Assembly (NCBI GenBank): GCA_041572575.1 | Contig: JBFFSH010000086.1 | Location: 1-10,636, forward strand | DNA: 10,636 nt | Source of the DNA: Thermodesulfobacteriota bacterium | Lineage (GTDB): Bacteria > Desulfobacterota_D > UBA1144 > Nemesobacterales > N074bin48 | Direction of reading: 5' to 3' | In this document: positions 2,442 to 9,251 of the stretch, one piece after another | How positions within the stretch are numbered: the first letter of the stretch is position 1 | How the letters are laid out: each line of letters begins with the position of its first letter | Position numbers and translations under genes: made by a program | The notes under the pieces: generated by a model | What the model saw: only the letters and a program-made list of their open reading frames with translations | The model's database searches: none | What the model was told of the DNA's origin: nothing

Positions 2442-2963
2442 TCAGACTAATAAATCTTTTTTCTTATTAGAGTTCAAACCATCTCTTTCAGCAAGGCTAA
2501 GCAGTATATGAAGCTCGTTTTCAGCAGACTTTCGCACCTTATCCATTGCAGCTTTTATAGCCTGATAGTTATCCTGAAATTCATTGTCCTTTAAGTCTTC
2601 CAGTACTTTAGCGCCAAGTTTTTGGACTTCTTGGGTAGAAATATCACCTGACTGTACTCTTATTTCTCCCATGGTTTTTAGTTTTGGCAGAAAATATTCA
2701 TAAATCCTGTTATCCACAAAATTTTCTATAAATAGATATGCAGAGGCGAGTGTGGCAATTGCGCTGTCATTATCTTTAAGCAATAATAAAGTTGCAAGCG
2801 ATCTCTTAATGGTCTTTTTGGGTGTTCCAAGCTCAGTCTCAGATCTTATACCAAGTAAGTTTATTGAATTAGAATCCGTTTCTAAAACCTTGCCAAATTC
2901 TTTAACTACATTCCATAACCTCTCATAATTTGCATCGCGTCTTTGCTGTGTTAGTGAGCTCAT
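2442..2963 (-). CDS. Hypothetical protein, 173 aa, soluble and predicted helical
   Basis: ATG start 12 nt after the mazG stop with GGGA upstream. Fills the gap between mazG and the convergent apgM. No family recognised. Confidence 0.75.
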   Translation of the reverse strand: MSSLTQQRRDANYERLWNVVKEFGKVLETDSNSINLLGIRSETELGTPKKTIKRSLATLLLLKDNDSAIATLASAYLFIENFVDNRIYEYFLPKLKTMGEIRVQSGDISTQEVQKLGAKVLEDLKDNEFQDNYQAIKAAMDKVRKSAENELHILLSLAERDGLNSNKKKDLLV

Positions 2964-4690: not shown

Positions 4691-5815
4691 CTAAACCTGA
4701 AATTTTTTGGGAAATTTACTTAATACTTCACACCCAGTTCTAGTAACCAGGACAACATCCTCTATCCTAATACCGCCTAGTTTTTCATAATAAAGCCCTG
4801 GTTCTACAGTTACCACATTTCCAGCCTCGAGAACGTCATCTCCTTTACTAACTCTCGGAAGTTCGTGTATTTCAAGCCCAAGTCCGTGACCTGTGGAATG
4901 GATAAACCCCTGTTGCTTTCCGTCAATAACTGCTGTTTTGAAACCGCTTTTATCAAAATAATCCACAATAGCATTATGAACATCTTTTGAATTTACACCG
5001 TGCTTTATCATATCTATACCGATTTTTTGTCCTTTGAGCACTACGCTGTACATTTTTTTTAATTCTTTAGATGGCTCTCCCTTGATAATGGTGCGTGTCA
5101 TATCACCAAAATAGCCGGTCTTTTGAGACCTGGGGAATATATCTATCACTACTGGAGTGCCTGATATTATAGGGCCTGAGCCCGAATGATGGGGCATAGA
5201 ACCCTGAACTCCCGATGCCACAATAGTATGAGAAGCTGTGTAGCCATGTTTTGATAGAAATGAGTTAATTTCTCCCTGAATAAATTCAGAAGTCAGAACT
5301 TTACCATTGAAATAAAGCCTGTTCTTCTTAGCTTTCGACAGACTTATAATATTAACAGCCACCCTCATTGCATCAGCAGTCCACTTAAGTGACTGTTTTA
5401 ATGAAGCAACTTCATGTGGATGTTTTTTTAATCTGCCCTCAAAAAAAGGCTCTGATTTTTTAGGGACTATCTTATAGCCTAATTTTCTTAATTGATCTGC
5501 ATATTTGATTGGAAATCTACCAGGTACTTCTGCACTTTTTATCTTTCGTTCTTTAAAAATCAGATCTACTATATCAGCAAAACCTGCTTTTTTTCTCTTA
5601 GCTGCAGGAATTTTTTTTATATATTCAGAAAACGATATTATTTTATCTACCGTGGCTTCTTCCCTGCCCCTATCTATCTCCAGATCACTTAGAACCAATA
5701 TTTTCTTGCGTTTATGTTCTATGTATATGCATGGGTCGGGTACAAAGAAACGAGTTTTATAAAATAGGTCTGCATTGCCTTCAGATGTATCTATTATTAA
5801 ATAAGCTTTATTCAT
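4691..5815 (-). CDS. Xaa-Pro aminopeptidase/dipeptidase, peptidase M24 family
   Basis: All pita-bread fold metal ligands are present: VIDIFP, GDMTRT, HSTGHGLGLEIHE, TVEPGLY, GIRIED. Creatinase-like N-terminal domain. ATG at 5815 (MNKAY) preferred over the TTG at 5842. Confidence 0.93.
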   Translation of the reverse strand: MNKAYLIIDTSEGNADLFYKTRFFVPDPCIYIEHKRKKILVLSDLEIDRGREEATVDKIISFSEYIKKIPAAKRKKAGFADIVDLIFKERKIKSAEVPGRFPIKYADQLRKLGYKIVPKKSEPFFEGRLKKHPHEVASLKQSLKWTADAMRVAVNIISLSKAKKNRLYFNGKVLTSEFIQGEINSFLSKHGYTASHTIVASGVQGSMPHHSGSGPIISGTPVVIDIFPRSQKTGYFGDMTRTIIKGEPSKELKKMYSVVLKGQKIGIDMIKHGVNSKDVHNAIVDYFDKSGFKTAVIDGKQQGFIHSTGHGLGLEIHELPRVSKGDDVLEAGNVVTVEPGLYYEKLGGIRIEDVVLVTRTGCEVLSKFPKKFQV

Positions 5816-5998
5816 GATATTTACTTTAGTTATTAACAGCAATATAATTACATTAAGTTACAAAGATATCATAATTAATTTCATATCAAATTAATTGTAC
5901 AAATAACAAAAAATATTTTAAAAAACTCGTAAATTTATGAAACTAAATACTGCATTGTATAAAATTAACCGTAGCACTAAAATTTTACTAAATATTTG

Positions 5999-6006
5999 GG
6001 GGACAG
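5999..6006 (+). repeat. GGGGACAG motif matching the GGGG-W-S-A-S terminal motif associated with inverted-repeat-flanked Y1 tyrosine transposase genes; solo left-end remnant
   Basis: The only G-run in a very AT-rich intergenic region, 40 nt upstream of the Y1-transposase homolog ATG. No inverted copy seen downstream of the gene. Confidence 0.4.
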
Positions 6007-6028
6007 TTTTTATTTATTAAAAAATATC

Positions 6029-6037
6029 TGATAAAAT
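6029..6037 (+). promoter_or_regulatory. Putative extended -10 promoter (TGaTAAAAT) for the RAYT-like gene
   Basis: TG at 6029-6030 and TAAAAT at 6032-6037, 9 nt before the ATG at 6047. An overlapping TATACT lies at 6037-6042. Confidence 0.4.
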
Positions 6038-6046
6038 ATACTCAGT

Positions 6047-6895
6047 ATGGCAAGACCTGTAAGATTAGAATTCAAAAATGCAGTTTACTTTATTAGTTCA
6101 AAATCAAGCGGCAGAAAACACATTGTAAAAGATGATGCTGACCGTCAAACATTTCTTGACACACTGGAATATGTTGTCAACAGATACCGCTGGAAATGTC
6201 ATGCATACTGTATAGGAAATACCGAATATAACATCGCAATAGAGACCCCCAGGGGAAACCTATCTGTCGGTATGCGACAATTAAACGGTATTTATACCCA
6301 GAAATTTAACAGAAAAAACAAAAAAAGCGGTAATGTGTTTCAGGGAAGATTTAAGGCTGTAGTTGTACAAAAAGATAAATATTTGCTCGATATATGCAGA
6401 CACGTAGTCACATTATCTCAAAGAGAAGGTATAACAAACAACATAAACACCTTCAAATGGAGCAGTTACAGAGCAACTTCTGGTACCGTAGATGTTCCCG
6501 AATTTTTACATGTTGAATGGATACACTCCCAGTTTGCTAAAAGAACCAAAAATGCCCAGGATAAATACAGGGATTACATTAAAGGTGCCAATAAAGCAGA
6601 AAATCCGCTTGATAGCGTAAGAGGACAGATACTTCTTGGAGATGAGCAATTTATTGAGCAGATGACCCTTATGCTCATTAAAGGCAGAAATAAAGAAGAT
6701 GTTCCTAAATGGCAAAGACATATAAAAAGACCTCCACTTGAAGAAATATTTAAAGGAATCGAAACTAAATCTGCAAAACAGAGAAATAAAAAAGTGAAAG
6801 AAGCTCATGGCAAACACGGATACACTCTAAAGGACATAGGACAGTATCTAGGGCTTCATTACACTTCTATAAGCAGAATAATTAACAGTATTTAA
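6047..6895 (+). CDS. REP-associated tyrosine transposase (RAYT)/IS200-like Y1_Tnp homolog with C-terminal HTH; catalytic residues substituted, predicted nuclease-dead
   Basis: Family scaffold motifs MARPVRLEF, DDADRQTFL, CHAYC, ETPRGNLSVGMRQLNGIYTQKFNR, VFQGRFKA, WSSYRAT, ILLGDEQF and C-terminal GYTLKDIGQYLGLHYTSISRII (HTH). The HUH position reads NTEYN and the catalytic Tyr/NP region reads RHVVTLSQREG. Confidence 0.9.
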   Translation: MARPVRLEFKNAVYFISSKSSGRKHIVKDDADRQTFLDTLEYVVNRYRWKCHAYCIGNTEYNIAIETPRGNLSVGMRQLNGIYTQKFNRKNKKSGNVFQGRFKAVVVQKDKYLLDICRHVVTLSQREGITNNINTFKWSSYRATSGTVDVPEFLHVEWIHSQFAKRTKNAQDKYRDYIKGANKAENPLDSVRGQILLGDEQFIEQMTLMLIKGRNKEDVPKWQRHIKRPPLEEIFKGIETKSAKQRNKKVKEAHGKHGYTLKDIGQYLGLHYTSISRIINSI

Positions 6896-6910
6896 GTAGG
6901 GTCTTATAAT
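6882..6910 (+). promoter_or_regulatory. Near-consensus sigma70 promoter for pyrD (TTAACA-N17-TATAAT)
   Basis: -35 TTAACA at 6882-6887 (5/6 match, inside the last codons of the upstream gene), 17-nt spacer, perfect -10 TATAAT at 6905-6910. Confidence 0.6.
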
Positions 6911-6939: not shown

Positions 6940-6964
6940 ATTTACAGATATCCTTTCTGTAAAT
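6940..6964. repeat. 9-bp perfect inverted repeat ATTTACAGA-N7-TCTGTAAAT immediately before the pyrD start
   Basis: Arms at 6940-6948 and 6956-6964, loop TATCCTT. Ends 2 nt before the ATG at 6967. Confidence 0.7.
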
Positions 6965-6966
6965 TC

Positions 6967-8067
6967 ATGTACAAACAAATTGTAAGTCCAATATTAGACC
7001 ATCTGGATTCAGAGACTTGGCACAATTTTGCCCGTGAGTCACTTCATCATTGTGAATCCTTTTCACCACTACTAAGGCTAGTAGAGCTTTTTAATTTTGG
7101 AGCCAGGCGGCTTATTGATGATAGATTAAAAGTAAACCTCAGTGGAATCGATTTTGATAACCCCGTAACAGTAGGCGCCGGCTGGGATAAATATGGAAGA
7201 GCAGTAAAAGCACTGTGGCACCTTGGATTTTCAGGTGTTGAAGTGGGTACAGTGGTTTTTCATCCACAACCGGGAAATCCAAAACCAAGGCAGTTTATGA
7301 TTGCACCAGGGGTTGGTGTAAACTGGCTTGGGTTTAATAGCCCCGGAATGGATAAAATTAAAGAAAACCTCAACAGATATAAAAACTCGGGTATTCCAAT
7401 CGGTATAAGTATTGGTAAAAATAAAAATCTGGATGATAAGGAAATTGCGTGGGCACACAGAGCTGTGGCCGAAGAGTTATATGACTTCGCATCTTATTTC
7501 GCAGTAAACGTAAGCTCTCCAAATACCCCGGGCTTGAGAAAGCTTCAGGATAAAAAACCTCTTGGCGAAATTATCGCCGCGGTAAAAGACTCCATGAAAG
7601 GTAAGAAGGTTAAAAAACCTGTTTTTATCAAAATTGCCCCCGAGCTTACTTTTCATGCCATAGATGAGGTAATCGATGTTGTAGAAGAAAATAAAATCTC
7701 TGGTATTATCGCATCAAATACAACTATAAATACTGAAATTAAAGCAAAATATGGCACAAGATGGAAAGAATCACAGGGCGGCCTCAGTGGAGACGACCCC
7801 GATTACAGAAAACTTGTAAATGACCAGATAAAGCATATTTATAAACAGACTAAGGGAAAGATGGAAATTATTGGGGTAGGCGGCATAAATAGTTCTGAAA
7901 CTGCTTTGGAAAAAATCAAAGCGGGAGCCAAGCTTCTTCAGTTAGTAACCGCCATCCGCGGCGAAGGTCCTTCAGTTGCCGGAAAAATTAACACCGGGCT
8001 TTTGAACTTCATGATTAAAGAGGGTGTGAAGGATGTTAGTGAATTAGTTGGAACAGACGCAGATTAA
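6967..8067 (+). CDS. pyrD: Quinone-dependent dihydroorotate dehydrogenase (class 2)
   Basis: N-terminal membrane-association helices (LDSETWH) and motifs NPVTVGAGWDK, EVGTV, QPGNPKPR, NWLGFNSPG, NVSSPNTPGLR (catalytic Ser), KIAPEL, SNTT, GGLSG, GVGGI. Confidence 0.96.
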   Translation: MYKQIVSPILDHLDSETWHNFARESLHHCESFSPLLRLVELFNFGARRLIDDRLKVNLSGIDFDNPVTVGAGWDKYGRAVKALWHLGFSGVEVGTVVFHPQPGNPKPRQFMIAPGVGVNWLGFNSPGMDKIKENLNRYKNSGIPIGISIGKNKNLDDKEIAWAHRAVAEELYDFASYFAVNVSSPNTPGLRKLQDKKPLGEIIAAVKDSMKGKKVKKPVFIKIAPELTFHAIDEVIDVVEENKISGIIASNTTINTEIKAKYGTRWKESQGGLSGDDPDYRKLVNDQIKHIYKQTKGKMEIIGVGGINSSETALEKIKAGAKLLQLVTAIRGEGPSVAGKINTGLLNFMIKEGVKDVSELVGTDAD

Positions 8068-8069
8068 TT

Positions 8070-9251
8070 CTATGTTGTATAATCCGAATTAAATTTCACA
8101 TAGTCCACTGTGAGGTCACTCGTAAGTATAAAAGAACTCTTTTTTCCGCTATTCAGATCAAGAGTGATTTCTATGTCTTTTTGTTTTAGGTATTTAGCGG
8201 CCTTTTTTTCATTCATTACAGCCATACCGTTTTTACAAACCTGATGCTTCCCAAAGTAAAGATCAATTTTATCCGGATTAAATTTTACTCCGGCCCGTCC
8301 CGCTGCCCCTAATATCCTGCCCCAGTTTGGATCCTGGCCATACAGGGCAGTCTTAACAAGCGTGGAAGTACCAATTGTATGGGCTAACTTATCCGCATCT
8401 TTTATTGTTTTTGTTCCCTTAATATTTATTCGTGCTACCTTTGTTGCCCCTTCTCCGTCTTCAACTATCTTGTATGCTACATCGCTTAAAACCCCATTCA
8501 ATGCATCTTCAACCTTTTTATAGTTTCTGCCGTTAAATTTTATAGGTTTATTCCCCGCATATCCATTTGTTAATAAGAGCACTGTATCGTTTGTAGATGT
8601 ATCTCCATCGACTGTAATCTTGTTAAACGAATCATTCACTGCACTTTTTAACAGTCTGTCCTGTGCTGTTTTTTCCAAAGCAATATCTGTTATGGCAAAG
8701 CAAAGCATCGTTGCCATATTAGGTGAGATCATCCCTGCACCTTTACCAATTGCTGTAATAGTTCCCTGCTTACCATCAATTTTAATTTTCTTAGACGACA
8801 TTTTAATAAAAGCATCTGTTGTCTTTATGGCTTGGGCTGCGTCATTTATACCGGCTTCTGAGAGTGAATTAACAATATCGGGTATCGACATTTTTATTTT
8901 GCTTAAATGTGAAGTAAGAAACGCTCCAATAAGCCCCGTGGATGAGGGAATAACGAGTGAATCTTTTATATGTAATTCTTTTGCAACAGCTTTCGTGATT
9001 TCATTTGCGTCTTTTATACCCTGCTTACCGGTGCATACATTTGCAATTCCACTGTTTATAACTACAGCCTGACACTTGCCTGACTTAACTTTTCTCTGCC
9101 CAATAATCACAGGAGCCGCCTTAACCACATTTGTAGTAAATACACCGGATACCTGTGCCGGTGTCTCAGAATATATAAGCGCAAGATCCTTTTTCTTACT
9201 TCTTTTAATTCCACTGTAAATACCCGATGCCTTAAACCCTTTTACAATCAT
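8070..9251 (-). CDS. argJ: Glutamate N-acetyltransferase / ornithine acetyltransferase ArgJ
   Basis: Motifs DLALI, GVFTTN, NSGIANVCTG, SSTGLIG, TTD, KGAGMISPNMATML (autocleavage Thr), VDGDTSTND, DGEGATK, DPNWGRI, C-terminal DYVKFNSDYTT. GGAG upstream of the ATG. Confidence 0.97.
   Translation of the reverse strand: MIVKGFKASGIYSGIKRSKKKDLALIYSETPAQVSGVFTTNVVKAAPVIIGQRKVKSGKCQAVVINSGIANVCTGKQGIKDANEITKAVAKELHIKDSLVIPSSTGLIGAFLTSHLSKIKMSIPDIVNSLSEAGINDAAQAIKTTDAFIKMSSKKIKIDGKQGTITAIGKGAGMISPNMATMLCFAITDIALEKTAQDRLLKSAVNDSFNKITVDGDTSTNDTVLLLTNGYAGNKPIKFNGRNYKKVEDALNGVLSDVAYKIVEDGEGATKVARINIKGTKTIKDADKLAHTIGTSTLVKTALYGQDPNWGRILGAAGRAGVKFNPDKIDLYFGKHQVCKNGMAVMNEKKAAKYLKQKDIEITLDLNSGKKSSFILTSDLTVDYVKFNSDYTT

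Follow-up and report, generated by a model that had tools for sequence, protein, structure and literature searches.

A TIRYT transposase gene without its catalytic residues, very probably kept by selection at a fixed bacterial locus

Locus, protein and family

The window (the whole 10,636-nt stretch of DNA that was analysed) carries an intact gene for a 282-residue protein derived from a Y1 transposase, with a divergent M24 peptidase gene on one side and pyrD on the other. Features of the locus are given below together with what each assignment is based on.

4691..5842, reverse strand: M24 peptidase gene, divergent conserved neighbour across a common spacer (Pfam, synteny)
5999..6017, forward strand: left terminal-repeat remnant fitting GGGGWSAS, 47 nt before the start codon, predicted binding site (motif, relatives)
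6029..6037, forward strand: candidate extended -10 of a leaderless or nearly leaderless promoter (by eye, in register with relatives)
6047..6895, forward strand: intact gene, catalytically eroded derivative of TIRYT (TnpA-Y1 subclass 2.1), 282 aa (ORF, profile, alignment, fold)
6062..6463, forward strand: Y1/HUH-fold core, residues 6-139 (profile, model, Foldseek, conserved columns)
6089..6103, forward strand: first-strand motif with H15 changed to F and R19 to K (alignment)
6224..6232, forward strand: former HuH metal ligands, now E60-Y61-N62 (codons, alignment)
6401..6415, forward strand: former Y---N motif with Y119 changed to H (6401-6403) and the ligand N123 to L (6413-6415) (codons, alignment)
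6812..6886, forward strand: predicted C-terminal helix-turn-helix (HTH), residues 256-280 (weak Pfam HTH_3 match, E = 0.062; model helices)
6967..8067, forward strand: pyrD, conserved downstream neighbour (Pfam, synteny)

We refer to the window protein as P0001, to its genome as G000 and to the family of that genome as f1, with f2 to f9 being other families of the same class; Lnnn, Gnnn, Cn and Xn denote homologue loci, genomes, contigs of G000 and public sequencing runs, respectively. The public runs containing the stretch are marine. Two proteins matching P0001 at 97% and 80% identity carry the source name Candidatus Dadabacteria and the product name 'addiction module toxin RelE', the latter of which we regard as a misannotation, as Pfam and NCBIfam returned zero RelE families.

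A good sigma-70-like promoter was seen at 6882-6910, and a hairpin with a 9-bp stem at 6940-6964 lies just before the pyrD start (z = -3.6) and is kept in 5/5 clade loci checked. Enteric pyrC and pyrD are governed by start-site-dependent translational switches, and the pyrD hairpin may be such a switch. Further, loci L111-L113 contain an extra ORF of 114-138 aa between pyrD and argJ that is missing from the window (8067-8070), and a 173-aa ORF at window positions 2442-2963, for which Pfam gave no significant match, keeps its position in 6 clade loci.

The reading frame of the transposase-derived gene, 6047-6895 on the forward strand, contains no internal stops, as stated in the initial annotation. 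P0001 matched the REP-associated tyrosine transposase model NF047646 over residues 6-139 with E = 5.9e-10 and 39 bits (cut-off 80) and Pfam Y1_Tnp weakly (E = 0.015). Identity to intact TIRYT members is 44-50%, and alignment to intact 282-residue homologues such as P0018, which passes the NF047646 cut-off, gave 50% identity with zero gaps, in good agreement with the gap-free alignment originally drawn by eye. We collected 286 distinct homologues, 20 of which make up the P0001 clade (down to 57% identity) while 244 fall outside the named lineages. No significant match was obtained in a PDB sequence search with P0001. A single structural model, built from 16 sequences, has a mean pLDDT of 61.5 with residues 112-198 below 50, and its top Foldseek matches are the IS608, ISDra2 and E. 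coli TnpA-REP structures. The Y1 core retains the N-terminal arm, the motif of helix 71-88, G100-R101 and the proximal SS motif W138-S139-S140, which is present in 20/20 clade members. The modelled HTH helices (261-268 and 272-280) reach a pLDDT of about 80-90, and the HTH_3 match is stronger in the homologues L003 and L004 (E = 5e-3 to 5e-4).

Length, SS motif and C-terminal HTH together place the protein in TnpA-Y1 subclass 2.1. Quentin et al. (2018, PMC6006769) equate this subclass with TIR-flanked TIRYTs and describe it as the second-largest Y1 group, present in about 15% of the species sampled; the left-repeat motif GGGGWSAS was published for the TIRYT/TIRtron system by Di Nocera et al. 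(2013, PMC3733652). P0001 resembles TIRYTs in its Y1 core and left repeat, in the SS motif that follows the Tyr helix and in having an HTH at its C-terminus. It differs from them in having no HuH motif, no Y---N motif and no right repeat, and in occupying a single, fixed, vertically inherited locus under purifying selection. Judged from its sequence, P0001 is a TIRYT descendant for which strict membership fails, since HuH, Tyr and right repeat are gone. The initial annotation of a RAYT/IS200-like protein was thus correct in its Y1 ancestry but not in the parent family, which is the TIR-associated subclass 2.1 and neither RAYT nor IS200. TnpA of the IS200/IS605 group (subclass 1.1) has about 150 residues, a Y---Q motif, subterminal hairpins and many near-identical copies, in contrast to the 282 residues, single copy and hairpin-free left end found here. 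The E. coli TnpA-REP/RAYT protein (PDB 4ER8; Messing et al. 2012, PMC3479197) has the same core fold (Foldseek E = 3.3e-4, rmsd 3.2 A, 124 columns) and is likewise a domesticated low-copy host gene. It is described there as catalytically active and as binding REP hairpins, whereas P0001 has no equivalents of H59, H61, Y115 and N119 and does have an HTH. Flanking REP hairpins, typical of REP-associated RAYTs (subclass 2.2 and kin), are missing at the window gene, and no other repeat family was found around it.

Loss of the active site under purifying selection

In E. coli TnpA-REP the active site consists of Y115 and the ligands H59, H61 and N119 (PMC3479197; PMC6006769), to which H119, E60, N62 and L123 of P0001 are equivalent. 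At the HuH motif (NH[YF]H) P0001 reads T59-E60-Y61-N62 and at the Y---NP motif H119-V-V-T-L123-S124, and the codons are those first reported (GAA TAT AAC at 6224-6232 and CAC at 6401-6403). We defined conserved columns as those at least 94% conserved among the 244 homologues outside the dead lineages, yielding 77 columns, at 18 of which (about a quarter) P0001 departs. As proposed originally, the changes are concentrated at the active site: all four of H60, H62, Y119 and N123 are changed compared with 14 of the 73 others (Fisher p = 0.002). These four residues are present together in 229/244 outside homologues. Within the clade, neither His of the HuH motif is kept by any of the 20 members, and N123, H15 and R19 are missing from 20/20. 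At residue 119, 8 members have Y, 9 have H and 3 have L, with H and L spread over several branches. The reported loss of HuH and Tyr therefore holds for the window protein, but N96, listed with them, is not a clade-wide loss as the position is H in 16/20. Three features had been overlooked: the change of N123, the third metal ligand, to L, the HTH at the C-terminus and the kept left terminal repeat.

The residues now occupying the metal site invite comparison with other nucleases. The HEN motif of ColE1-type (MOBP5) relaxases is similar to E-x-N at the residue level. Relaxases in which HEN replaces the 3H motif are described (PMC3394729), and P0001 could accordingly be a nuclease with a rebuilt metal site, given that E60 is found in 14/20 and N62 in 13/20 clade members and Y119 is kept in 8/20. 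We consider this very improbable. E60 and N62 are limited to a subclade, with early-branching members having K, Q or L at position 60 and C, S or A at position 62, and the site further suffers from the variable residue 119 and the universal loss of N123. The only tyrosine left in the Tyr helix is Y112, named by the initial annotation as an alternative nucleophile; it is common to intact members and hence not newly recruited.

The losses are not restricted to this one sequence. Close orthologues do not retain the H-x-H pair, the reading frame is intact in every clade member down to 57% identity, and private decay is ruled out by these common losses and by dN/dS values far below 1. An assembly error is likewise ruled out because proteins at 97%, 84% and 80% identity share E60, N62 and H119; contigs of four public runs have no other letters at these codons among the matches listed.

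Selection was quantified as dN/dS using Nei-Gojobori counts. The P0001 gene compared with L112 gave 0.056 (38 synonymous and 9 non-synonymous changes), while neighbouring genes in the same comparison gave 0.070 (pyrD), 0.067 (argJ), 0.046 (recO) and 0.151 (M24). Values in the clade range from 0.056 to 0.17, the latter for the pair L115-L119, at synonymous distances of up to about 2; more distant pairs gave 0.07-0.14 with synonymous sites near saturation. The locus is fixed, which speaks against mobility. Wherever a contig reaches a neighbour, M24 or pyrD is in place at 10/10 clade loci with available DNA (pyrD downstream at 9, M24 upstream at 7), several of these loci being near-identical so that they represent about four lineages. 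The orthologue is single-copy and fixed between the two genes, and the one other family homologue in G000 is an intact element on contig C6 that has both repeats and is 26% identical.

A recently immobilised transposase undergoing neutral decay without any host function would explain why 18 of the 77 most conserved columns have changed. It is incompatible with intact frames to 57% identity, with the low dN/dS and with the fixed locus, and is refuted by dN/dS and synteny unless the assemblies are chimeric, leaving it with hardly any probability. The selection for a non-catalytic role postulated in the initial annotation is thus supported by the orthologue losses, the low dN/dS and the fixed single-copy locus, and we regard the gene as very probably catalytically dead and kept by selection. 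Single copy number, fixed locus and purifying selection are also the hallmarks of a domesticated transposase. Of 924 sequences, Quentin et al. excluded 202 as probably non-functional because their core was incomplete or motifs were missing (PMC6006769); here, a motif-less subclass 2.1 member of the type that was set aside is under housekeeping-level selection.

There is a weak hint that the gene may be expressed. Metatranscriptome X5 yielded contigs covering 6052-6678 and 6684-6852 but reached only 8/30 window bins, run X8 was patchy (19/30 bins) and X1 covered 30/30 bins in a DNA-like manner. The hint is weak because the runs were picked by means of this gene.

The retained left end and the search for its sites

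While the right end has disappeared, the left end is preserved. The left motif lies 44-48 nt ahead of the start codon in 149/181 loci. After exclusion of short-flank loci and repeat fetches of one place, it was present at 53/53 dead-lineage loci, none of which has an inverted right partner (at least 12/14 letters; 0/53), compared with 98/118 intact-class loci and 9/13 further loci outside the intact pattern. Between the window gene and pyrD the best inverted match is 9/14. Compared with L119, 18/19 letters of the left end are identical but only 25/59 of the letters upstream of it. The left end does not fold (z = 0.08, no hairpin), and since the parent family is not a hairpin-binding RAYT or IS200 either, the binding of hairpin ssDNA or RNA suggested in the initial annotation is disfavoured.

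The end may also serve the promoter. Many relatives have a -35-like hexamer where the repeat ends and, 6-10 nt ahead of the start codon, a -10-like hexamer, an arrangement that points to a leaderless transcript; in the window, the candidate -10 at 6029-6037 was not called by a consensus promoter scan. However, the half of the site that contains GGG is located upstream of the -35 and is nevertheless fixed, so that a promoter alone is insufficient to explain its conservation. Covariation of repeat variants with protein residues could not be read as a pattern due to too few variants.

We propose, with a probability of roughly 60%, that P0001 is a non-cutting, sequence-specific DNA-binding protein that acts on the old terminal-repeat sequence and has been maintained at a single locus by purifying selection. 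This proposal builds on the directly observed ancestry, clade-wide loss of H60, H62 and N123, fixed locus, low dN/dS and preferential preservation of the left end. The repeat at 5999-6017 would still be recognized by the HTH together with conserved faces of the Y1 core. Protein bound there, just upstream of and overlapping the probable -35, would control its own expression level and might in addition affect the divergent M24 operon across the common 204-bp spacer. Self-control alone cannot account for the selection, so that a host target is required; by position alone, the M24 operon is the nearest candidate, and in the sister lineage treated below the likely targets would be a dispersed family of 14-bp sites.

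A less probable alternative, to which we give perhaps a third of that weight, is a non-catalytic binder of RNA or single-stranded DNA, for instance at replication forks, which would act through an RRM-like Y1 core and keep the left end as promoter only. Residues 1-145 have a dN/dS of 0.03-0.04 (window compared with L112 and L113) and the HTH 0.07-0.2; this stronger constraint on the core speaks against a sequence-specific binder and also fits a single-strand binder, as do the fold matches to ssDNA-binding TnpA structures and the overlap of the repeat with the -35-like hexamer in many relatives. The conservation of the end portion upstream of the -35 and the missing hairpin argue against it, as do exact sites inside coding sequences that travel with the gene in the sister lineage.

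A dispersed site family was not found in G000, which again favours the single-strand alternative. At three positions the left end in this genome has diverged from the canonical core. Its exact 12-mer has 9 matches compared with 0.8 expected, 6 of which belong to one IS256-type element and 1 to the gene itself. Across exact and degenerate patterns at most 5 distinct matches were seen for one 12-mer compared with 1.0 expected, and looser patterns gave no excess. G001, the other f1 genome, also showed no excess, with 7 matches of a 10-mer and 7 control matches. Only 1/6 non-self G001 sites is kept in G000, which is within chance; this common site, in an iscS-like gene, has a chance of about 5% when taken alone (47/97 codons identical nearby) and is one of six tried. 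A separate 10-mer family (GGAGCTCGCA and overlaps) is present in G000 in about 45 copies compared with about 1 expected.

Two other elements reside in the same genome. An intact TIRtron with both ends and a DnaA-like tail lies at G000:C6:51351-52378 (L002, L335) and at the common locus on G001:C114 (L336), beside an mraZ-like gene. Its own end occurs in 6 and 9 copies in the two f1 genomes and differs from the end of the P0001 gene at 3/13 positions. An IS256-family element at G000:C8:48568-49634 (L334) and at five contig ends has at least 6 copies. It contains an exact 13-bp match to the left end of the dead gene; the match falls within the opening codons of a 43-aa ORF, which overlaps the IS256 transposase frame, making a frameshift possible. 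The element was not found in G001 (74% complete).

P0001 might be a brake on a co-resident element, either on the C6 TIRtron by end occupancy or multimer poisoning or on the IS256-family element. Both f1 genomes do hold the intact TIRtron with its end copies, and G000 the exact left-end match in a six-copy element. We nevertheless find a brake unlikely, even more so than a single-strand binder. The C6 protein is distant in sequence and differs in its tail, which is DnaA-like; E. coli TnpA-REP, the relative that has been characterised, is reported as a monomer (PMC3479197), and the insertion sequence appears much younger than the gene. Moreover, a second family member (E <= 1e-30) is missing in 45/47 sister-lineage genomes, so that the dominant-negative role put forward in the initial annotation cannot be a general one.

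Sister lineages and recurrent erosion

A profile search of 120 class genomes found a homologue in 2/2 f1, 5/5 f3, 5/6 f6 and 37/37 f8 genomes, compared with 0/2 in f5, 0/19 in f9 and 1/33 in f2. Going by these matches, the gene is near-core in the sister lineage (f3, f6 and f8), occurring in 47/48 genomes of 1.2-2.4 Mb, and 45/47 have exactly one family match at E <= 1e-30. Erosion has taken a different form in each family: both His are lost in f3, one His and N123 in f8, and in f6 HuH is kept while Tyr is mostly lost. L022 keeps all four residues but misses the right end. Median dN/dS is 0.11 in f8 (379 pairs), 0.15 in f3 and 0.16 in f6.

In these genomes a site family can be counted. The 12-bp core GGGTCARGTCTT has 3-12 exact copies in each of the 47 gene-bearing f3, f6 and f8 genomes, one copy being the gene's own promoter, compared with 0-1 copies in 61 genomes without a profile match and 0-3 copies of the reversed control; the genomes are related and not independent, and hence no significance test was applied. 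Flanking letters outside the search pattern are also constrained, with a purine before the core and G or T after it at 52/53 distinct sites each. Sites are found in intergenic regions as well as within unrelated genes, in all frames. MatP/matS, Noc/NBS and SlmA are well-known site-specific chromosome organisers. The sister lineage is similar to such systems in that each genome has about 5-12 copies of a 14-bp site, which occurs both in spacers and within genes and, in one family, clusters around a candidate origin. The differences are that the proteins are not homologous, that the site lacks a palindrome and stems from a transposon end, and that it was not found for the window gene. In three f3 genera (L245, L273, L278) a canonical site is retained 15-27 bp away from the birA start, between birA-like and zinc-ribbon genes.

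In f6, a pair of sites spaced about 91 bp apart occupies the spacer after mnmE in 5/5 gene-bearing genomes (9/10 exact). This spacer is a candidate origin by motif content only, having DnaA-box-like motifs and a parS-like motif. Motifs of both kinds were also noted in the mnmE spacers of G000 and of f3, f6 and f8 (L247, L253, L265, L266, L267, L289, L285), with no DnaA-box-like motif in the one f8 genome inspected for it; in f6 the boxes reach into the 3' end of the adjoining aminotransferase gene. The mnmE spacers of G000, G003, G010 and G014 contain zero sites within one mismatch of the canonical core, which limits the origin link to f6. Two in-gene f6 sites, in a hydrolase gene and in accB, are exact in 4/5 gene-bearing genomes each, G027 departing at both.

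In G017, the f6 genome that yielded no copy of the gene, 2 sites match the 14-mer with at most one mismatch, compared with 19 in G006 and 17 in G027 (controls 5, 5 and 6); each of its origin sites differs at one position and each in-gene site at three. Loss of the gene together with its sites is suggested by this pattern, but as both neighbours of the locus, a 119-aa ORF and ccmC, stop at contig ends, the value of G017 as a clean gene-loss control is weakened.

The bearing of these sites on the window gene depends on how the lineages are related, and that the site evidence stems from f3, f6 and f8 is a point against P0001 being a sequence-specific binder. In quick trees with the catalytic columns masked, f3, f6 and f8 form one branch, while the P0001 clade is sister to L004, which has HuH, Tyr and Asn but no right end. 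The free tree thus separates the P0001 clade from f3, f6 and f8, although a single origin of f1, f3, f6 and f8 is not rejected (AU p = 0.13). A single origin of all eroded lineages including the f7 clade was rejected (AU p = 0.010), and by these trees eroded forms in the class have at least two origins. Among 128 full-length representatives (best 150, 50% clustering), 38 are without at least one of the four residues, a figure that query and clustering both bias towards divergent forms; it suggests that catalytic loss arose repeatedly in the family.

Taken together, the dead, selected TIRYT is a well-supported variant of a known family. Two jobs appear to be separated: the cutting residues and the right end are lost, whereas the left end and a further conserved surface are retained. 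Columns kept across the dead lineages comprise M1, R3, R6, E8, N71-N88, G95, G100, R101, W138-S140, Q194-G198, H271, Y272 and S276, and are predicted to mark the DNA-reading surface. The separation hence predicts repeat-reading residues as well as exact candidate sites, including the two beside DnaA boxes. If the proposed sequence-specific binding holds true, a prokaryotic transposase would have been turned into a sequence-specific DNA-binding factor along with its sites. TldR proteins, described as TnpB-derived nuclease-dead repressors (PMC13565253), similarly are transposon nucleases that lost catalysis and became DNA-binding host proteins; P0001 has a different fold, shows no indication of a guide RNA, and would recognize its old repeat through the protein itself. 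Searching mainly the open literature, we found no published reports of selected dead TIRYTs, although the alignments of the defining papers may contain such members, and no functional study of subclass 2.1. The present analysis contributes the site counts and the origin-region sites.

More tentatively, dead TIR-associated transposases might constitute a type of bacterial chromosome-binding protein that has evolved repeatedly, uses an old transposon end as host site and has become core at least twice in this class of bacteria. The f6 protein, whose two sites flank DnaA boxes, would then be a regulator of replication initiation or origin organisation, and the window gene would have the same role at a site that has drifted and is more degenerate. 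We consider this broader scheme doubtful as a whole, with perhaps one chance in four of being right.

Eroded relatives also occur elsewhere. In an f7 lineage (L005, L006, L007, L126) HuH is kept, Tyr is mostly changed to His and the right end is lost, and the lineage has its own drifted left end, which is single-copy in 3/3 genomes. Syntenic Tyr-to-His homologues without repeats were further seen at L069 and L106 in gammaproteobacterial MAGs and likely represent another domestication.
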